64,000 nucleotides of DNA from Candidatus Bathyarchaeota archaeon (GCA_963715865.1 OY970280.1:2144001-2208000), one strand, 5' to 3'; shown: positions 20,839 to 42,294, counted from the stretch's first letter. A program made the numbers and translations. Notes: generated by a model not told the origin, from the letters alone.

Positions 20839-22395
20839 ATGAGCGAAAAAGAAAAACTACAAAAAGCAATCGAAGCAACAATCGCAGCAGGATACCAACT
20901 AAATAGCGAAGCCTTTGAATTCTTAAGCCAAAACTCAGAGACGACCGATCCAGTCGGCATTATGAACTTAGCACTTCAAAGAATACAGGACTTACAGGAA
21001 AAACCAATCTTCATCGACAAAATTTTCTTAGAAACCTTACTACAACAGTTAACGGCGCCTATCCCAAAAACACAGTCCCAGCAACAGCAAAACGCCCTAG
21101 AACCACCAGAAAAACAGCAAACAAGTCTAGTTGAAAGCACTTTTTATCCGTACGCCAAGGATATAAAAGCAAGCATTAACGTTCTGGAAGATGCCACAGG
21201 CAAGCTTAGTTCCAACGGTACTCTCGAAGAATACTTGCAATATTTTCAAGACAGGTTTAAACGAATCGAACGCTTGTTAAGACAAAGAATCGACGTTAAA
21301 GCTGCAACACCGATACTAGAAGCGCTCAAGTCACCGGCTAAAACAAAACTCAAAATAATCTGTATGGTAACAGAAAAAAGAGAATCAAAAAATCAAATGA
21401 TACTATCAGTTGAAGATCTGCAAGGAAGCGCAACTGTCTTAGTGCCTCAAAAAGCACCAGAAGAAGTCCGCAAAAAAGCCCTACTTCTTTTGCTTGACCA
21501 AGTAATTTGCTTGGCAGTAATAAAAACAAGAAGCAACCTTTTCCTAGCTGAAGACATAATTTTTCCAGAAATAGGCAGAAAAACCCAACAAAGAGCCCAA
21601 GAACCAGTTTACGCTGTCTTAACGTCAGACCTTCACATTGGCAGCACTAAATTCCAAAAAGAAGCATTCAAACGATTCATACTCTGGCTTAATGGCAAAT
21701 ATGGAAACGAGCAAATGAAGGAAATAGCAAGCAGAGTAAAATATCTACTAATCGCAGGCGACATCGTTGACGGCGTTGGAATTTACCCCAACCAAGCAAA
21801 AGAGCTATCCATACGAGACGTGCACAAACAATACAACTTTGCTGCCAAGTACATGGAAAAAATCCCCGAGTACATCGAAATAATAATTTCTCCTGGCAAC
21901 CATGATGCCTCACGCAAAGCCTTACCCCAACCTGCCATACCACAAGATTATTTGAATGGACTTCAAGGTAAAAACATTCACTCAGTTGGAAGCCCATGCC
22001 TATTAAGCCTACATGGTGTGGAAGTTTTAATGTACCATGGCCGAAGCTTAGACGACATAATCGCTGTTATACCAGGAATGGACCATGAACACCCAGAAAA
22101 GGCAATGAAGCTACTCATGCAAAGCCGTCATTTAGCCCCACTTTACGGCGGCAAAACTATGTTATCACCCGAAAACCGAGATTACCTAGTAATAGACAGA
22201 GTGCCAGACATCTTCCACGCGGGGCACATTCACGTATTAGGTTACTGCAATTATCGTGGAGTACTGGTGGTAAATTCAGGCGGTTGGCAGGAACAGACAG
22301 AGTACATGGAAAAACTGGGGTTGGTCCCTACGCCAGGCAAAGTTCCAGTGGTGAACTTACAAACACTAGAAACAACCGTTCTCTCATTTAACTAA
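20839..22395 (+). CDS. polB: DNA polymerase D small (proofreading) subunit DP1
   Basis: SDLHIGS, AGDIVDGVGIYPNQ, PGNHD, YHGRS, RHLAPLYGG and FHAGHIH calcineurin-like motifs plus OB fold. Confidence 0.97.
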   Translation: MSEKEKLQKAIEATIAAGYQLNSEAFEFLSQNSETTDPVGIMNLALQRIQDLQEKPIFIDKIFLETLLQQLTAPIPKTQSQQQQNALEPPEKQQTSLVESTFYPYAKDIKASINVLEDATGKLSSNGTLEEYLQYFQDRFKRIERLLRQRIDVKAATPILEALKSPAKTKLKIICMVTEKRESKNQMILSVEDLQGSATVLVPQKAPEEVRKKALLLLLDQVICLAVIKTRSNLFLAEDIIFPEIGRKTQQRAQEPVYAVLTSDLHIGSTKFQKEAFKRFILWLNGKYGNEQMKEIASRVKYLLIAGDIVDGVGIYPNQAKELSIRDVHKQYNFAAKYMEKIPEYIEIIISPGNHDASRKALPQPAIPQDYLNGLQGKNIHSVGSPCLLSLHGVEVLMYHGRSLDDIIAVIPGMDHEHPEKAMKLLMQSRHLAPLYGGKTMLSPENRDYLVIDRVPDIFHAGHIHVLGYCNYRGVLVVNSGGWQEQTEYMEKLGLVPTPGKVPVVNLQTLETTVLSFN

Positions 22396-22410: not shown

Positions 22411-23652
22411 TCAGCTATCACTAATCGAGCGCTTATGAGAAACTTGCGGAGAATAATCGATTAAACGGCCAAATCGGCTATCACCGCCAAATACATCCTT
22501 AATAAGGCTTCGGGAAATTTCAAGCCTGATTTTTTTCGTTCTACCATACCGACCCATACTTACAACTTTCGCATTTACAAGACCCATGGAATCAAGCTCG
22601 TTAATTAAAGTGCCTAAACGGCGTTGTGTCAGAAGCCCAGCACCCAATTCGCCACAAAGTTCGTTGTAAACATCGTATATTTCGCCTGTAGTAGCACTTG
22701 ACTTGTTCAAGTGGTAAACGCTGAGAAGTACTAATGTGGAATGTAGCGTTAAATTTTTGAGAGCTTCAACCACTCGGTTATGCTCAATATTCTTCTCCGC
22801 CTGGCGTACATGCTCTTCTGTAATTACCTTAGCGCCTTGGCGCTCAGCAACTTCTCCAGCAACACGCAACAAATCCAGAGCTCGTCTCGCATCCCCATGC
22901 TCAGCAGCAGCCAAAGCTGAACAAATACTTAACGCTGAATCAGACAAAACGCCCTCTTGAAAGGATAATTTTGATCGTTCAAAAAGAATGTTTCGAAGTT
23001 CACCCGCATCGTACGGCCTAAAAACCAGTTCTTCCTCGCTAAGAGAACTAAAAACTCTAGGATCCAAAAATTCCTTCAATCGAAGGTCGTTTGATATGCC
23101 GATTATCGAAACCTTGCTCTTATGTAGAGTTTCATTTATCCTTGTTAGCTCATACATAAAAGCGTCTCCTCGGTCTTTGATCAAGGCATCAATTTCATCG
23201 AGAACTATGATAAAAATTATTCTGGAAGAATCTAAACCTGCTCTAAACCTATCAAAAACTTCACCAACAGACAAGCCTGTAAAAGGTATAGCCACACCAA
23301 GGTTTTGGCTTAGATTTGCGAAAACGCGGTATTCCGAACCGGTCATTCGGCAATTTATGTAACAAAATTTTACTGACGCACCATATTCTTTCGCCTTAGA
23401 TTCTAGATGGCTCAACACGTATTTTGTTACTGCTGTTTTTCCGGTTCCGGTTTGTCCATAAATAAAAATGTTAGAACATCTTGCATTCTTTAGGACTGGC
23501 GCAACAGTTTGTCCTAATAATCTTATTTGTTCTTCTCTGTGGGGTAATTTTTCAGGAAGATAATCGTGCCTCAGAACTTCTCTATCCTTAAACAATCGAA
23601 CTCCATTAACGAAATTTTCGAATACGTCATCTAATACGCTTGGATTTCCCAT
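22411..23652 (-). CDS. cdc6: Orc1/Cdc6 replication initiator
   Basis: LPHREEQI, Walker A GQTGTGKT, VLDEID, GDARRALDLLR and C-terminal wHTH ...GRYGRTK. Confidence 0.97.
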   Translation of the reverse strand: MGNPSVLDDVFENFVNGVRLFKDREVLRHDYLPEKLPHREEQIRLLGQTVAPVLKNARCSNIFIYGQTGTGKTAVTKYVLSHLESKAKEYGASVKFCYINCRMTGSEYRVFANLSQNLGVAIPFTGLSVGEVFDRFRAGLDSSRIIFIIVLDEIDALIKDRGDAFMYELTRINETLHKSKVSIIGISNDLRLKEFLDPRVFSSLSEEELVFRPYDAGELRNILFERSKLSFQEGVLSDSALSICSALAAAEHGDARRALDLLRVAGEVAERQGAKVITEEHVRQAEKNIEHNRVVEALKNLTLHSTLVLLSVYHLNKSSATTGEIYDVYNELCGELGAGLLTQRRLGTLINELDSMGLVNAKVVSMGRYGRTKKIRLEISRSLIKDVFGGDSRFGRLIDYSPQVSHKRSISDS

Positions 23653-23801
23653 TTACCCAATCTCACATTTTTCAGAGGCATCACTGTTATTTCGTGTGGA
23701 ACAGATAAAGCATATAGTACAAAAAACTGGTCTTGGAACACAATAATCCTAAAAAACGATGGAAACACTCGATAACAACTAAACAAAATGAGAGCAAGAC
23801 G

Positions 23802-23824
23802 CACCCCAATGTTTCTACTGGAAA
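23802..23824 (-). promoter_or_regulatory. ORB box 1
   Basis: Minus strand reads TTTCCAGTAGAAACATTGGGGTG, matching the archaeal ORB consensus (TCCAGTGGAAAC..GGGG). Confidence 0.9.
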
Positions 23825-23985
23825 AAAATCTTGTTTAAGAAGAAAATGACTTTATTTATATTAATGTAAATATACTCTGATAGGTAAGAAGTAATTTGGT
23901 ATATTAATAATTCCTATCCAAGATTTTAGATAAACAGTTTGCAAATATTTTTTCAAGCTTTCCTAGCTTCTTTTTAGCCTGAACA

Positions 23986-24008
23986 CTTCGAGAGGAAACA
24001 TAGGGGTG
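23986..24008 (+). promoter_or_regulatory. ORB box 2
   Basis: CTTCGAGAGGAAACATAGGGGTG, 18/23 identical to ORB1. Confidence 0.82.
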
Positions 24009-24140
24009 CCCCTCCAAGTATTTTCCCAATGGTAAATTAAATTATTAAAAGCGGTAGTTAAGTTGTTTTAACCGTAACTAATTAAATTCTAAACAAAGTA
24101 TATTTTCAGAATTTTCGCGCTAAAGCCTTCCTATTTTTAG

Positions 24141-24441
24141 TTCACAAAACTGTGAATCCGTGTGAAATAGCATTAAAATTGTTCCTTTCTCAAGTCTCTT
24201 TTCATATAAATTACCCTTTTCCTGTCCTTTCCCTGTGAATAAGGCACCCCTTCACTTCTACTGGAAAAGTAAAACAAAGCCATAACTAAATTTTTTTAGC
24301 TGTTTCACTTTAGCGTGAAGCTGGTTATTGTAAAAAAACTGTATTTTTAATCGTTTTTTAATTTACAAGCTTGATATTGCCTTTTTTAATTCCTTTGTTT
24401 CACCATAACAGCTATAAGTTGTGAAGTGTAAAGCTTGTGAA
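24141..24441. repeat. TTCAC/GTGAA box array at the right edge of oriC
   Basis: Ten TCAC/GTGA hits (24142, 24152, 24162, 24235, 24252, 24305, 24315, 24400, 24421, 24437), all in TTCAC context; two form TTCAC-N6-GTGAA palindromes. Confidence 0.75.
24245..24267 (-). promoter_or_regulatory. ORB box 3
   Basis: Minus strand reads TTTCCAGTAGAAGTGAAGGGGTG; the first 12 nt and the GGGGTG tail are identical to ORB1. Confidence 0.88.
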
Positions 24442-24463
24442 CAACCCTTAAGGTGTGCACCTA

Positions 24464-24892
24464 ATGCCAGCTCGTAAAATACGCGTTGAGCTGTTCGATA
24501 GCGATGGTAATCGATATACTATTGCTTTTGAGGGTCAGGTAACCCGTGATAAAGCTCTACGCCTCTTGGATCTTGTAGAATTGCTAGGTGGTGTACCGGG
24601 TGAGGGTCCAACTTTAGGTACAGGGGCTTCTTTACCAAATCGCGTCCTTTCGCGCTTTGAAAAAGTTCAGTTAGTGATTCAGAAAAGTTTTCCGTTAATT
24701 TGGTTTTCTTCAAAGGATATTCAGTCGATTTATGAGCAGGAACTTAAAGAGCCAATTAGCCTTAGTACAGTTTCCACTTATCTTTCAAGGATGGCAGGCA
24801 AAGGTATGCTTTTAAGGACTGGTGGACAAAACAATTTGAAGTATAAAACTGCAAACATTTCTCAAGCGACTATAAAGCAACGCATAAAGTAA
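24464..24892 (+). CDS. oriC-flanking protein with small N-terminal domain and C-terminal winged helix
   Basis: N-terminal IRVELFDSDGNRYTIAFEG; C-terminal SSKDIQSIYEQELKEPISLSTVSTYLSRMAGKGMLLRTG wHTH pattern; ATG at 24464 follows an AGGTG SD. Confidence 0.8.
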   Translation: MPARKIRVELFDSDGNRYTIAFEGQVTRDKALRLLDLVELLGGVPGEGPTLGTGASLPNRVLSRFEKVQLVIQKSFPLIWFSSKDIQSIYEQELKEPISLSTVSTYLSRMAGKGMLLRTGGQNNLKYKTANISQATIKQRIK

Positions 24893-24977
24893 CTTGAGCA
24901 GCTAAGTGACGCAAAGCATAAAACTAAATTTAGTGTGACTAAGGATTGATTCCGTGAGCGCTTAGGGTAGAGTACAA

Positions 24978-25997
24978 TTGGATAAGAGTATTGAAGTAGA
25001 CTTCGGCGAAATGGAACATAAACTTAAATGTTATATTGATAAAGGCAGAATCGCTCTTGGAAGTCAAGTAAAAGAAGAACCGTTAGTAGCGGTAAAACCT
25101 GATGCTTCACTAATTAGGCCTCTAAAGAAAGTTACTACGTACATGGGCAGTTTCATTGCTGTTGACTGCTCCACTCGTACTTTAAAGCGAGCAAATAATT
25201 GGGGAGTATACTTAATGCGCGCCTCATGCGTTTCAGTTAGAGAGCGCGCAGTTGATTGGAGCTACTCAGAGAGAATTTGCACTGTTGTCGGGGACTCGCA
25301 TGTACGTAGGAGTTACCTGCAGGATTTTAGGATTGAATTAGAAAGTCAAGTTGCTCTGCGAATGCTTAAAGAACAACTAAGTAAGCCTTACCACGTACAT
25401 GGGGATGTACGTAGTATGTACCTTCTCCTAGATGGTGGTGGCTACTTTGGTGGTGAACGAAAGTTTAGAGTATCTCTTTATGAGGAATGCAAGAAAAATG
25501 GTGTTAGGCTTTTAGCCATCAGCAAGAATTCTCCTTCAATGCATGATGAGAAAGGCAGAGACTTAGTCGCTACTACGTACACCATGACCTCTCATCCAAT
25601 TTGGGTGTATTACCCCGTGCGGAAAGCAGACAAAGACAGAAGCTTGTATGGCGATATCGCTATCGTAAAGCTATGCGCTGAAAGCCAGCACGTTTTCCGT
25701 TGTGACATAATGGATTATCTTACCCAACAAGATATTGTTGAATTGCTTTCACCTTTAACCAGCGTCTGTGAGGATCCTCGATGTGTAGGTTATCCAATAA
25801 GCCTCTACTTGGCACACGAATTCTCGGCCCCTTCAAATTCTATGCTGTTTTCTTATCATGACCAGATTGAAGATAAACTAAATGAAGCAGGATTGCTTGA
25901 TGCTCTGAGAAGAGAAGAACGTTCATGCAGTTTTGCAGATGAGATTCATGGAGTAAAACACGCGTTTGAATGGGAGATGTGGGATGACCAATACTGA
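24978..25997 (+). CDS. nurA: NurA-family nuclease (divergent)
   Basis: FIAVDCS and LLLDGG catalytic Asp motifs, LAISKNS, GYPISLYLAHE. Confidence 0.82.
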   Translation: MDKSIEVDFGEMEHKLKCYIDKGRIALGSQVKEEPLVAVKPDASLIRPLKKVTTYMGSFIAVDCSTRTLKRANNWGVYLMRASCVSVRERAVDWSYSERICTVVGDSHVRRSYLQDFRIELESQVALRMLKEQLSKPYHVHGDVRSMYLLLDGGGYFGGERKFRVSLYEECKKNGVRLLAISKNSPSMHDEKGRDLVATTYTMTSHPIWVYYPVRKADKDRSLYGDIAIVKLCAESQHVFRCDIMDYLTQQDIVELLSPLTSVCEDPRCVGYPISLYLAHEFSAPSNSMLFSYHDQIEDKLNEAGLLDALRREERSCSFADEIHGVKHAFEWEMWDDQY

Positions 25998-27513
25998 TTC
26001 AATAGGATTTGTTTGCGGAACAAAGGGCGATTCAGTTTCATTTCTAGTCAGCAAAAACATCGGATTATCGTTTGGCCAAATAGTACGCATTGACTCTGGC
26101 GAAAGAAACTTTTATGCCCGGGTCGTTAATTCTGAAAGCAGTTCAACCCTTGAAACAATAGAACAGTTGCGTGAGGCAGAAGGCAAAGAGGCATTTGGAC
26201 CATATTCAGCTTACAGAAGTGTGGAAGCGATCCTGTTTTTGGAAAAGAGAGGCGATACTTTGCGTTCGCCAACATTTAACCCAAACTACCGTGACAGAGT
26301 ATACGCCTCAACCGACGAAGACTGCTCCATATTAAAGCTCTCAGGCGAACTTGAAATTGGGTGCTTGCGTTCAGAAGACCAAGTCCTAAGCTCAGTAGGC
26401 ATAAACATTGAAGCTATACCCAAAATGATGGGCATGTTCGGCATGACCGGCTCTGGAAAAACAAACACCGAATTAATCATAAATGCTCAACTAATCGATA
26501 ACAGTCCAAGAACTGTGGCTCTAATTTACGACTTTGCCGGGCAACTTCTAGAGGGAAAAGAAATTAAAACACAAAGAGGTCTAAAAGATCACCCCTTATT
26601 CCACAGCAAAGTCCAATTCTACTCAGCTCAGGATGGAAAAATGGCTGTGGGCTTAAGCACTATAATCCCTGGCAAACTCGAAACTCTGTTTCCTGATATT
26701 CAGCCTCCTCAAAAACGGCTGGCATGGGCCTTGTATAGGCATTTTGGAGCTGACTGGATTCAAAGTGCCAGAGAACTGTATCATAATGAGGGAAACGTTG
26801 GTGTCCGTGCGCAAAAAGTTGTTGCTGACGCACTGATGCAAAAGCTCTCCTCCCTATCAAGTGACCTCTTCCCAGCTTCTAATTACAGTTTTGTTGAAAG
26901 TGTCCTTCAGAATATATGCAAAGGCATAACCTGCTTAATCGACATTTCAGGGCTTCGTTCGGAAGATCAAAACCGAATCGTTTGTTTATCTGCATCAGCA
27001 GTAGCTGAACATTATAAGCGTATGTGGGAAGATAACTTCGAGGAATGGCGAAAGCTTCCTACGCTGCTAATAACCCTTGAGGAAGCACACGAGTTTCTTG
27101 ATCCAAATAAGCCTCGGACAATTTTTTCTGATATTGCCCTTACATATCGCAAGTACAGGGTTGGGCTTAACGCTGTGACTCCAAGGCCTTCAAGGATTAA
27201 CTTTGACGTGTTTGCTGAGTTGTGGACTAAAGTGATAATGAAAACAGAGTTGAAGAAGGATAGACTTTACTTGACTGAAAATACTCCGTACATGGAGTAC
27301 AGTGAAACAGAAATAAAAATGCTTGACGTCGGTGAAGCTTTGCTTATTTCAGAGCCAAAGATCAAATTTGCTGTTCCAATCAAGGTAACGCATTATCCAG
27401 AGTACCTAGATAAGCATCGCAGGGTTGATTATGGGCTTCCTGATTCACCGAAACTTACGCAGATGGATGAGCGTCTTAAACGGTTGAGTGGGCAAGAGAC
27501 GCCTTCTTTGTAG
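25984..27513 (+). CDS. herA: HerA-family ATPase (divergent)
   Basis: N-terminal HAS-barrel-like region, Walker A GMTGSGKT, Walker B ITLEEAHEF, YRKYRVGLNAVTPRPS; start overlaps the nurA stop. Confidence 0.85.
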   Translation: MTNTDSIGFVCGTKGDSVSFLVSKNIGLSFGQIVRIDSGERNFYARVVNSESSSTLETIEQLREAEGKEAFGPYSAYRSVEAILFLEKRGDTLRSPTFNPNYRDRVYASTDEDCSILKLSGELEIGCLRSEDQVLSSVGINIEAIPKMMGMFGMTGSGKTNTELIINAQLIDNSPRTVALIYDFAGQLLEGKEIKTQRGLKDHPLFHSKVQFYSAQDGKMAVGLSTIIPGKLETLFPDIQPPQKRLAWALYRHFGADWIQSARELYHNEGNVGVRAQKVVADALMQKLSSLSSDLFPASNYSFVESVLQNICKGITCLIDISGLRSEDQNRIVCLSASAVAEHYKRMWEDNFEEWRKLPTLLITLEEAHEFLDPNKPRTIFSDIALTYRKYRVGLNAVTPRPSRINFDVFAELWTKVIMKTELKKDRLYLTENTPYMEYSETEIKMLDVGEALLISEPKIKFAVPIKVTHYPEYLDKHRRVDYGLPDSPKLTQMDERLKRLSGQETPSL

Positions 27514-27515
27514 GT

Positions 27516-28232
27516 TTATGTTTGTTGGCTGTTTTCGGTTTTCTTTAGTAGCTTTTCCATCTCTTTTTTGATACTGTACCTAAAGGGTATTTTGCCTACT
27601 TCCCTTTCCAAATAGCCTTCTTCATAAAGTTTCTTCATCAGTCTTGCTGTGTGCTCCCTGCTAAGTTGTACTCTGTCTTTGACTTCCGGCGCTGTCTTGG
27701 GGCCTTCTGAAGATAACATTTCCAGCACTGCAATTTCTGTATCTGTTAATGCAGCCATTGCTTTATCACGCTTGATTGGTATAACAGGTTCACCTTTAAT
27801 TTCGGGAGCAACAGTAAACTTTTGGATTTGCTCTTCAAAACCAGTTATTTTCACCCTTAACGTTTCCTGGGAATCTTCAATATCTTTGATTTTCGATTCC
27901 AAACTGGTTAATCCTGATAAAATGTTAGTGTTGTTCTGTGAAATAGCGCTGACTTGATTCTCTAAAGGCGCCATCTTCTTTTCAACGTTGTCCATCTTTT
28001 TAAGGCTTGTATCAGCTTTAGCAGAGCTTCCCTCAACTTTGTATGCAATAAGTTCTAATCTGTCGGCTTCACGCTTGAGTTCTCTGTTAAAACTGAGCAC
28101 AATGTCTTCGACAATATCCTTAGCTTTCTCGTATTCTTTTTGTGCCTTGCGTATTTGCCTATAATACTCCACTGATGCTGCTACTGTCGCAGCCAGCAAA
28201 ACGCCTAAGATTACAAGTGCAAAGTCAACCGT
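27516..28232 (-). CDS. Membrane-anchored coiled-coil protein with C-terminal winged helix
   Basis: Frame extends 5' of the called TTG (28199) to complete a TM helix VDFALVILGVLLAATVAASV; about 130-aa heptad-rich stalk; wHTH LTDTEIAVLEMLSSEGPKTAPEVKDRVQLSREHTARLMKKLYEEGYLER; start placed at ACG 28232 (uncertain). Confidence 0.82.
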   Translation of the reverse strand, partial: TVDFALVILGVLLAATVAASVEYYRQIRKAQKEYEKAKDIVEDIVLSFNRELKREADRLELIAYKVEGSSAKADTSLKKMDNVEKKMAPLENQVSAISQNNTNILSGLTSLESKIKDIEDSQETLRVKITGFEEQIQKFTVAPEIKGEPVIPIKRDKAMAALTDTEIAVLEMLSSEGPKTAPEVKDRVQLSREHTARLMKKLYEEGYLEREVGKIPFRYSIKKEMEKLLKKTENSQQT

Positions 28233-28245
28233 GCTTTTCCACCCC

Positions 28246-28354
28246 TGTGATTTAAGCGTGATTTAATCAGTTGCATCACACATCACAGTTCCCCATGGAC
28301 TTTTTAAGGTTTGCGGTGACATTCCCGCATGTTCTTATGATATCACACATCACA
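28246..28354. repeat. RTCAC box array 1
   Basis: Seven TCAC/GTGA hits; GTGATTTAA twice (28247, 28258); exact 13-mer ATCACACATCACA twice (28275, 28342). Confidence 0.85.
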
Positions 28355-28499
28355 ATCTTTTCTTTTGACTACTCCCCTCCCTGAAAGCCTGCTAAAACTC
28401 TTTAATTTAAGCTTATTTTGGCATTTAGGGCTTAAACGTAGCACGTGCGCTTCAATCTTTTTAACTTTAATTTTCTAGCTAAAAATTGTTGCTTAGTCC

Positions 28500-28519
28500 T
28501 GTGATTTGTGACGTCACAA
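28500..28519. repeat. RTCAC box cluster 2
   Basis: TGTGATTTGTGAC is an 11/13 match to the reverse complement of the 13-mer; perfect 14-bp palindrome TTGTGACGTCACAA at 28506-28519. Confidence 0.75.
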
Positions 28520-29014
28520 GGGCTCTTCTGATGGGCTAGAAAGCCGTTTTAGGCTTGTTTCAAGCTCTTCCCGTATGATTTCTATGACTTTTAGATGGTC
28601 CTTTAGTTCCTCTTCCTTGTCAGGTGTGCCTTGATGTGCCTCGACATATTCGTGCAGTTTATTGGCTATTTCGAGATACGGGTCAAGAGTTGTGCTATCA
28701 AACACTCCTAAGTACCCTAAAAGTAGCACTGTATAAATCGATTTTATCACGTTTTCTTTGGACTGTTTTAACGTCCTGTTAAAGGCTCCGCGGCTTATTT
28801 TTGCCTTAGTTAGCCTTAAGTTGGCTTTTTCGTCGTATTTTAGCTGTTTGCCCGATATATTTTCGGCTAAAACGTCTATTAACAGTGTTTCAAGCTGTGT
28901 TTTGGTTAATTGGCTGTTTTTAGCGAGTATTTTGACAATGGGGTCGTTTAACGCTCCTGTTAACCATGCTTGAACGCTGTCTTTAAGCTTCAAACTGCTC
29001 ATCTCTTCCATCAT
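28514..29014 (-). CDS. Hypothetical protein with a Tfx/sigma70-region-4-like HTH
   Basis: LTKTQLETLL...YDEKANLR...ISRGAFNRTLKQSKENVIKSIYTVL resembles Tfx-type HTH spacing; the HTH call is pattern-based only. Confidence 0.7.
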   Translation of the reverse strand: MMEEMSSLKLKDSVQAWLTGALNDPIVKILAKNSQLTKTQLETLLIDVLAENISGKQLKYDEKANLRLTKAKISRGAFNRTLKQSKENVIKSIYTVLLLGYLGVFDSTTLDPYLEIANKLHEYVEAHQGTPDKEEELKDHLKVIEIIREELETSLKRLSSPSEEPL

Positions 29015-29367
29015 CTAAATGAATACACTTTTGTATACTGACTCGGGCTTTTTAAGGCTTATCCAATCAAAAATATGATCCTTACCTGCTATTAAAGCAG
29101 CCAAAAAACGGGTGAAATAGGAAAAGAAAGCAAAACAACTGCTCTTTGCAATTTAGAGGAATAAATGGCATATTTAACATATAAACGACTAAAATATTGA
29201 CTATTTAGCGGGCGCTTTCACGGATTTTAAACGATAATTACAGTTTTAAAACGTTTACTTGTCTTCTACTCTTTCTTATTTGGCAATTTTACTTTCTACT
29301 GCCAAATTATCGTTGCTCTTTATTTTGTAATCTTTTCAGGCCTTACTTTTTCCCTCATCAACTTCAG

Positions 29368-29483
29368 TGTGATTGGGTTAATAGGATTCGTGACGTCACC
29401 TGTCACGTTAAAATCACGCTGATTTAATCAAAAATCACTTGATATCACAAGATTGTGATACGTTTGTGATTTCTAATTATCAC
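29368..29483. repeat. RTCAC box array 3
   Basis: Ten TCAC/GTGA hits in about 115 bp; palindromes GTGACGTCAC (29390-29399) and TATCACAA-GA-TTGTGATA (29443-29460). Confidence 0.88.
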
Positions 29484-29512
29484 TATCTTCCAAGACTAGC
29501 TGCTATGTTTGT

Positions 29513-41987: not shown

Positions 41988-42294
41988 GCCTCGATTAGGA
42001 ATCTAAAGAGAAACTAAAATGTTTTATTATATAACAGCATCAGGGGGTTGTATTGCAATTAAAGGACCCCTACATATACTCATGTATGTTATTGGCGGAA
42101 AACATGTATATAAATAATAACACAGAAAAATATCAATTAAATTAACAGATTTATATTAATAAAAATAATTCTTGCGTTAAAAAATTACAATTTCCAATGG
42201 AAATTCTGGTCTGATATGTTTTTTCATTTATATAATACTCATATATATCTTCGCTACGTATGTCCTCTATAGACACTAAACCTTTACGGGAGAA

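Follow-up and report, generated by a model that had tools for sequence, protein, structure and literature searches.

Two proposed TCAC-type operator sets with separate candidate readers in an origin-flanking block of Candidatus Bathyarchaeota

The stretch of DNA analyzed here, referred to as the window, comprises 64,000 nucleotides of Candidatus Bathyarchaeota archaeon (GCA_963715865.1 OY970280.1:2144001-2208000) and carries, next to a replication origin (oriC), two families of short sites built on the core TCAC/GTGA. The sites at oriC have the form TTCAC/GTGAA (T-type), and those around two more distant genes have the form RTCAC/GTGAY (R-type). We regard it as fairly probable, on comparative evidence, that these are two separate, private operator sets in a conserved origin-flanking block, and that two winged helix-turn-helix (wHTH) proteins of the block, wHTH145 and TMwHTH, are their respective readers. 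The genome is complete with 2,354,843 bp, and all coordinates are those of the window. Homologues of the window proteins are found in metagenome-assembled genomes of Candidatus Bathyarchaeia/Bathyarchaeota, including Bathycorpusculum. For comparison, twenty loci were fetched first (17 of the same genus and three of other families) and then 40 from ~25 families; the 61 loci counted span ~30 Bathyarchaeia families. The three DNA-binding proteins discussed are as follows:

24464..24892, plus strand: wHTH145, 143 residues, with an N-terminal β-β-α unit, a linker, and a winged helix; the ATG at 24464 is conserved
27516..28232, minus strand: TMwHTH, 227–238 residues, with a hydrophobic N-terminal helix, a coiled coil of ~110 residues, and a MarR/TrmB-type winged helix
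28514..28993/29014, minus strand: p166, 159–166 residues, a helical protein kept in single copy throughout the class, with a predicted helix-turn-helix (HTH) resembling sigma-70 region 4/LuxR

The 17 loci of the genus keep the order small subunit of DNA polymerase D (PolD-S), orc1, oriC, wHTH145, TMwHTH, p166, CN hydrolase, and NadE, and the split between T-type and R-type sites is present in every one of them. The region 24141–24441 of the window contains ten core matches—at 24142, 24152, 24162, 24235, 24252, 24305, 24315, 24400, 24421, and 24437—and the full match list bears out the statement of the initial annotation that all ten are T-flanked. Four sites can be distinguished among them, one next to an origin recognition box (ORB):

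24141..24166: TTCAC-N6-GTGAA palindrome with a third GTGAA 5 bp further, seen in the genus alignment
24235..24239, minus strand: T-type box, separated by 4 bp from the G-string end of ORB3, conserved in 16 of the 17 genus loci
24304..24319: second TTCAC-N6-GTGAA, of which only the right half (GTGAA + GCTGG) is conserved in the genus
24399..24441: wHTH145 promoter, with TTCAC and two GTGAA around a TATA-like element at 24412–24418, a block nearly invariant in the genus

In the first site, both half-sites are invariant and the third box is nearly so across the 17 genus loci, and its exact 16-mer pattern is unique in the genome. The juxtaposition of a T-type box with ORB3 recurs in the families f14, f26, and f34. 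Two matches are probably incidental, as relatives do not conserve them: the TTCAC at 24252, which falls within the variable ORB3 spacer, and the left half of the palindrome at 24304. The boxes at 24399..24441 would cover the expected start site of wHTH145, TATA element and start site both being predicted from the sequence.

The remaining 20 core matches, at 28247–28350, 28501–28514, and 29369–29480, are all A- or G-flanked, in agreement with the earlier claim that the distal arrays hold nothing but ATCAC or GTCAC. They are arranged in three groups:

28247..28353: array B, TMwHTH promoter, with two double heptads, one GTCAC, and two AAATCAC repeats, as judged by the genus alignment
28501..28517: composite overlapping the p166 stop codon, a 10-bp palindrome GTGACGTCAC with a half-site 2 bp away
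29369..29484: array C, ten half-sites 350–470 bp upstream of p166, including GTGACGTCAC, ATCAC-N6-GTGAT, and phased direct repeats

The elements of array B surround a TATA-like element at 28300–28308 (minus strand): the two double heptads (28275–28287 and 28342–28354) flank it, one of them lying over the expected start site, and both copies are kept in the 17 genus loci. Repeats of AAATCAC(G) at 10/11-bp intervals run to the TMwHTH start codon, with 2–5 copies across the genus. A 20-bp element with the 10-bp palindrome stands at the p166 stop codon in all 17 genus loci, one of which carries a single substitution. Array C is conserved in the genus and variably kept in other families. The period-7 pairs reported at 28276/83, 28343/50, 28501/08, and 29396/403 are present, as are the spacings of 10, 11, and 21 bp and the three occurrences of TCAC-N6-GTGA at 24142, 24305, and 29445. 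Composite RTCAC sites are found only 4–5 kb from oriC in this genome, the near-origin concentration by which parS-like sites are recognized; the distance from oriC to the R-type arrays is ~1.3–2.5 kb in relatives that lack the nurA-herA genes.

The clusters are extremes on the scale of the genome. The core occurs at a rate of 1 per 182 bp, in place of the background of 1 per 128 bp given in the initial annotation. At 10 per 120 bp, the array at 29.3–29.5 kb surpasses every other TCAC cluster of the chromosome in density, and the array at 28.2–28.4 kb, with seven matches, is tied for second overall and second among RTCAC clusters. The oriC cluster, with 10 TTCAC per 300 bp, is the sole site in the genome with at least seven. 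TTCAC-N6-GTGAA has five genomic copies, two of them at oriC, and no other TTCAC cluster exists. Both GTGACGTCAC and the 13-mer double heptad have two copies each, all in this locus; palindromes of the GTGAYRTCAC type number three, two of them here. Other RTCAC-rich spots are situated inside coding regions and carry no composite sites. These figures come from the whole-genome count that the initial annotation had set as a refuting test.

These counts rule out chance clustering, whose sole argument is the shortness of the core motif. An origin of the clusters as chance, compositional features, or mobile-element remnants is practically negligible in probability, given their extreme density and their syntenic conservation across the class and into a second class. 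The GC content across the block (~0.32–0.44) fluctuates as in the flanking DNA and marks no discrete compositional island, and Rfam and tRNA scans of the window yield nothing near the arrays. T-type boxes and RTCAC arrays likewise contain no ORB/mini-ORB dyad core.

The division into two types holds across the class, as judged by mean counts per 330 bp in the 61 loci:

330 bp upstream of wHTH145: TTCAC 6.8, RTCAC 0.66
330 bp upstream of TMwHTH: TTCAC 0.5, RTCAC 8.5
background per 330 bp: TTCAC 0.8, RTCAC 1.1

In a class-wide position matrix, the base 3′ of GTGA is A in 86% of the sites upstream of wHTH145; the shares in the p166–TMwHTH spacers are 6% for A, 63% for T, and 26% for C. Further preferences beyond that base appear only in the R type (R, T, C, A) and derive from its palindrome and heptads. 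The geometry of the two types differs as well. T-type half-sites are convergent, with centers 10–11 bp (N5/6) or 22–23 bp (TATA-bracketing) apart, and are never abutting; TTCAC-N17/18-GTGAA is the commonest T-type spacing class-wide. This is the classical geometry for a winged-helix dimer. Among R-type sites, the abutting palindrome GTGAY/RTCAC dominates (78 cases in 35 regions), accompanied by direct repeats at 7 bp (51), 10/11 bp (77), 21 bp (28), and 32 bp (21), and xTCAC-N6-GTGAx occurs in four cases only. The proposal of a 6-bp spacer shared by both types therefore applies to one RTCAC site in this genus but fails class-wide, where the abutting palindrome and direct repeats prevail. The R-type arrangement suggests DNA-binding domains on flexible tethers that stack on the same face along the helix, and the helical phasing of its direct repeats would be compatible with the cooperative polymerization proposed in the initial annotation.

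A single protein reading both variants, with an irrelevant flanking base and one common TCAC regulon, would account for the GTGA core and the preference for a preceding T that both types share, and for the one RTCAC site with the N6 palindrome geometry of the TTCAC sites. We consider this very unlikely: the difference in the A flank is maintained across ~30 families, the spacing rules differ, and the two site sets are lost independently, each together with a different gene. The assignment of an own variant to each wHTH protein, made in the initial annotation, fits the co-occurrence, the co-loss, and the flanking base in this comparison of genomes.

The losses can be followed gene by gene. In whole-genome profile searches, the wHTH domain of TMwHTH is not found in 11 p166-bearing genomes of the families f14, f23, f25, f26, f27, and f35. 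In ten of the 11, no stretch of 330 bp up to 2.5 kb from p166 contains more than four RTCAC, compared with 5–18 where TMwHTH is present. Profile searches for wHTH145 find no homologue in the families f24, f18, f21, f33, and f30, in two of three f17 genomes, and in the genome G079 of f35. Three loci (L116, L117, and L138) have an orc1 orthologue and clear ORBs, no wHTH145, and only 1–2 TTCAC boxes. The families f24, f18, f21, and f33 also lack the orc1 orthologue and retain only a paralogue of ~30% identity elsewhere; in these families, the segment orc1–oriC–wHTH145 seems to have been lost as a unit. Their loci (L125–L129, L119, L122, L140; L155–L159, L161–L163) have PolD-S, TMwHTH, p166, and NadE side by side.

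This pattern bears on the view that the TTCAC/GTGAA boxes are extra Orc1/Cdc6 elements—extended ORBs—and not sites of wHTH145. A T-type box does stand just upstream of ORB3 in several families, and the joint absence of orc1 orthologue and wHTH145 in f24, f18, f21, and f33 also speaks for it. However, the three loci with orc1 and ORBs in which the boxes dwindle along with wHTH145 speak against it, as do the lack of an adjacent box at ORB1 and ORB2 and the location of the densest boxes around the TATA element of wHTH145, away from any ORB. We hold this explanation to be quite improbable.

Several points weigh against wHTH145 and TMwHTH as private readers at the origin. Binding, autoregulation, and an origin role are inferred from what is observed, namely, the positions, rarity, and conservation of the sites and their co-occurrence with the genes, and it is on co-occurrence that the assignments rest. 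The p166 tree contains about five changes in the state of TMwHTH, which the arrays follow in four; the direction is the expected one, but with 3–5 independent pairs, the events are too few to give a test of co-loss statistical power. The sole exception to the co-occurrence of gene and arrays is G079, a genome of 86% completeness: at L145 (5991–6814), near a short run of N, a gene for a 227-residue protein with an XRE-type HTH and a CBS domain stands in place of TMwHTH, yet the RTCAC palindrome and arrays remain. The arrays adjoin the 3′ end of p166 and not TMwHTH where other genes intervene. For a dimer of winged helices, half-sites that abut at 5 bp would be uncommon. Families that have lost the neighboring orc1 and wHTH145 still retain TMwHTH and its arrays, which weakens a strictly origin-dependent role. 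Finally, the cumulative GC skew of the whole genome gives no clear origin signal and hence no independent confirmation of the origin, the call of which at oriC is based on the adjacency of orc1 and on the ORBs.

The behavior of the arrays where other genes separate p166 from TMwHTH and their survival in G079 would be explained if p166 read the RTCAC sites and TMwHTH were a mere regulated target, and GTGAYRTCAC indeed overlaps or follows the p166 stop codon in every array-bearing family. Nevertheless, p166 is an unlikely reader. The ten genomes poor in RTCAC keep p166, its HTH, and a palindrome ATACA-N4-TGTAT and have no RTCAC arrays, and all ten are without TMwHTH. The p166 promoter itself carries no RTCAC box, array C being 350 bp away. 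It features instead the following element:

29021..29038, minus strand: operator-like palindrome ATACA-N4-TGTAT of p166, just downstream of the p166 TATA-like element

This palindrome is conserved by eye in the great majority of the 61 loci, including those without TMwHTH, and in its strict pattern in 37 of 61. It is probably a third private operator, for p166 itself; a protein with its own conserved palindrome has no need for RTCAC sites, which argues against p166 as their reader. Between array C and the p166 promoter, at 29040–29368, lies an AT-rich stretch of 330 bp (GC content ~0.33) with two blocks conserved in the genus and no open reading frame of at least 50 residues; it could act in regulation from upstream or specify a small transcript.

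With wHTH145 and TMwHTH as the preferred readers, the following mode of action can be proposed. The most likely target of a wHTH145 dimer is a pair of TGTGAA half-sites in the arrangement TTCAC-N5/6-GTGAA, and wHTH145 may repress its own transcription, since T-type boxes bracket its TATA-like element and cover the expected start site. In addition, it may act as an origin-accessory factor, because boxes lie beside ORB3 and inside oriC—with the palindrome ~90 bp further in—and because the wHTH145 gene is absent wherever the orc1 orthologue is absent. TMwHTH most likely binds TGTGAY half-sites, be they joined in 10-bp palindromes whose halves abut, paired as heptads, or lined up as direct repeats in phase with the helix. 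It, too, may be autorepressive, as R-type sites surround its own TATA-like element and start site; they also flank p166 on both sides. The base immediately 3′ of GTGA would be the discriminating one, A for wHTH145 and T or C for TMwHTH. With a wHTH on a coiled coil of ~16 nm, TMwHTH may, more speculatively, hold the origin-proximal island at the membrane, its N terminus being fixed there and ~20 half-sites in 1.3 kb being occupied. The recognition helices of both proteins—LSTVSTYLSRL in wHTH145 and REHTARLMKKL in TMwHTH—are nearly unchanged class-wide and match the unchanged motifs, which we count in favor of the two as readers.

Of 201 genomes sampled from the phylum, 134 encode a wHTH145 homologue. 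The protein scores 19.9 bits against Penicillinase_R (BlaI/MecI), below the cut-off of 22.6 and over residues 87–142 only; no NCBIfam match is obtained, and a profile search finds no relative among Protein Data Bank (PDB) sequences at E < 0.01. The AlphaFold2 model, built from 17 sequences with a mean predicted local distance difference test score (pLDDT) of 60 and used for secondary structure only, predicts at low confidence an N-terminal β-β-α unit, a disordered linker, and a wHTH. The initial annotation had called the two wHTH proteins related; this is not sustained, as BLASTP between them gives a nonsignificant E of 0.04 and their weak Pfam affinities and their recognition helices differ.

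TMwHTH matches in residues 151–210 the families HTH_27 (27.5 bits, cut-off 22.2), MarR (25.9, cut-off 24.6), and TrmB (25.7, cut-off 25.6). Its profile retrieves coiled-coil matches and nothing specific from the PDB sequences. The Pfam scan and alignments show no ligand-binding domain, and TMwHTH hence differs from the soluble, ligand-responsive dimers that define the MarR/TrmB regulators. No canonical start codon precedes the hydrophobic helix (28199–28235, minus strand), and a TTG at 28199 would split this helix in half. An ACG codon at 28230–28232 is kept in 15 of 17 genus loci, the other two having an aligned TTG preceded by GAGGTG. This suggests the ACG as a noncanonical start, or alternatively its conservation may be due to the overlapping AAATCACG box. 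The TMwHTH homologues of the family f34 (L141–L144) have a charged or amphipathic N terminus in place of the hydrophobic helix; f34 nonetheless has the richest RTCAC arrays, with 13–18 per 330 bp, and L142 carries 21 TCAC/GTGA of any flank in ~390 bp.

The protein p166 is near-universal and single-copy in the class (126 of 151 genomes), and its start is probably the TTG at ~28993. The predicted fold consists of helices with a pLDDT of 90.5. Residues 33–96 superpose by VIA-align with a root-mean-square deviation of 1.4–1.5 Å over 52–53 residues on sigma-28 region 4, EnfR (8hno, 29% identity), and DesR, with Z-scores of 6.7–7.3 that are within noise for helical models. EnfR is an archaeal regulator (PMC10570040). 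Foldseek finds no match of the model in the PDB at E < 0.001, Pfam gives no match, and the profile search of PDB sequences returns nothing specific.

The block extends beyond the class. Five genomes of the family f37, one of which is Nitrosopumilus zosterae as judged by an exact protein match, keep the order orc1, oriC, wHTH145, TMwHTH, and p166; four of the loci extend far enough upstream to include PolD-S, and all four have it there. The recognition helix of TMwHTH is kept with one A-to-S change, and so are the GTGAT boxes, with three GTGAY boxes in the ~100-bp spacer of four of the five loci. The helix of wHTH145 is changed to LS-V/I-ISTYLSRF, which differs at two positions from that of Bathyarchaeia, and the f37 origins (L165–L167, L183, L184) carry TGTTAA(C)/TTAACA boxes instead of TGTGAA, beside ORBs and before the wHTH145 homologue. 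These boxes number 7–12 per ~490 bp compared with 2–5 in the remaining 5–6 kb. At the level of sequence, f37 is one instance of the wHTH145 helix and its box changing together.

On a wider and tentative reading, which we deem possible and yet doubtful, TMwHTH and its island form a centromere-like origin–membrane tether and wHTH145 acts with Orc1 at ORB3, the two making up, together with p166, one origin-management module common to Bathyarchaeia and the Nitrosopumilus lineage. We know of no characterized segregation systems in Bathyarchaeia and the ammonia-oxidizing Nitrosopumilus lineage. To our knowledge, chromosome positioning and segregation in most archaea, as well as origin factors besides Orc1/Cdc6, are largely unknown. 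In literature searches covering the origins of Bathyarchaeia and of Nitrosopumilus as well as archaeal wHTH proteins anchored in the membrane, no description of the present proteins was found. The block thus presents three uncharacterized DNA-binding proteins beside an origin, each with a candidate private code, conserved class-wide and in Nitrosopumilus. The presence of the module in cultured ammonia oxidizers would make an undescribed origin-linked system accessible to experiment. Should only autoregulation be involved, the locus would still offer a clean natural case in which two orthogonal operator codes have evolved next to each other.

The present proteins are not members of the families of the following systems, except that TMwHTH has a generic wHTH domain of the MarR/TrmB type. 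The UBP/ucm pair of Sulfolobales origins consists of a short non-ORB origin element bound by a dedicated noninitiator protein (Dhanaraju et al. 2025, PMC12141716), and no further archaeal origin-accessory pair of motif and protein was found in the literature. Like ucm, the T-type boxes are a short non-ORB element that lies within the origin of an archaeon, amid ORBs or adjacent to them. UBP is an abundant nucleoid protein of saddle shape whose sites in the genome number in the hundreds, whereas wHTH145 is a predicted winged helix with its gene at the origin, and its composite sites are found at oriC and in its own promoter only.

RacA/ram of Bacillus subtilis is an origin–membrane anchor. RicO/ricS of Staphylococcus aureus is another such anchor (bioRxiv 10.64898/2026.03.06.710092). 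TMwHTH resembles RicO and RacA in combining a sequence-specific DNA-binding domain with a membrane-binding element, its membrane localization being predicted, and in the concentration of sites near the origin. RicO uses an amphipathic helix at its C terminus, and its sites are scattered across the origin region, whereas TMwHTH combines a transmembrane-like helix at the N terminus with a long coiled coil, and its ~20 half-sites are gathered in a single compact island; no sequence relationship is seen between them.

The ω protein of plasmid pSM19035, a ribbon–helix–helix ParB, binds WATCACW heptads in 7-bp direct and inverted repeats that overlap promoters and double as the centromere (PMC9499535). 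The R-type core ATCAC is nearly identical, and its 7-bp repeats overlap promoters as well. However, ω requires at least four contiguous heptads and has a ParA partner, whereas R-type heptads occur in pairs, the abutting 10-bp palindrome is commonest, and the candidate readers are of the helix-turn-helix type; the resemblance is an analogy only. Families of ParB/ParA are absent from the 13 proteins scanned at 19.6–35.8 kb, no whole-genome search for ParA/SegA having been made. A neighboring protein of 1142 residues, considered as SMC or ParA, is the large subunit of DNA polymerase D (PolD).

In the autoregulated, dimeric wHTH repressors of the MarR/TrmB and BlaI/MecI types, as for the present proteins, inverted repeats overlap the promoter of the protein's own gene. 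These repressors are typically soluble and ligand-sensing, with one or two operators each. TMwHTH differs from the MarR/TrmB types by its predicted membrane anchor, the lack of a ligand domain, and its ~20 half-sites, and wHTH145 differs from BlaI/MecI by its sub-cut-off Penicillinase_R score and an unrelated N-terminal domain.

The gene island of the window is arranged in the order PolD-S, orc1/cdc6, oriC, wHTH145, a NurA-like/HerA-like pair, TMwHTH, and p166, beyond which follow the CN hydrolase, NadE, geranylgeranylglyceryl phosphate synthase, and the PolD large subunit. The intergenic region between orc1 and wHTH145 is 800 bp long and AT-rich and contains three ORB elements. The remaining features of the island are as follows:

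20839–22395: PolD small subunit, upstream of orc1 (Pfam scan)
22411..23652, minus strand: orc1/cdc6 initiator gene bordering oriC (Pfam Cdc6_lid, Cdc6_C, AAA_22)
23801..23826, plus strand: ORB1, G-string and TTCTACTGGAA core, by sequence and core match; block conserved in the 17 genus loci
23990..24009, minus strand: ORB2, inverted, by sequence; conserved block in the genus alignment
24244..24269, plus strand: ORB3, by sequence, genus alignment, and core match; a GTGAA box lies just upstream, also in distant families
24978..27513, plus strand: NurA-like/HerA-like pair, divergent (DUF87/HerA match), inside the module and outside the motif system

Between 14.8 and 37.2 kb, only two ORB cores (TTCCA-N-TGGAA-like dyad) are present, those of ORB1 and ORB3. 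The RTCAC island can be dismissed as a second origin, since no ORB core is located there. None of the 17 same-genus loci has the NurA-like/HerA-like pair at this position, but other families of the order possess it, as does a further genus of the family itself (L152), and repeated loss is thereby implied. One relative (L013, 3200–3250) retains a 17-residue remnant of the HerA C terminus. Elsewhere in the window, an AT-rich stretch carries a perfect palindromic ORB-like core, TTCCAATGGAA, at 42192–42202.

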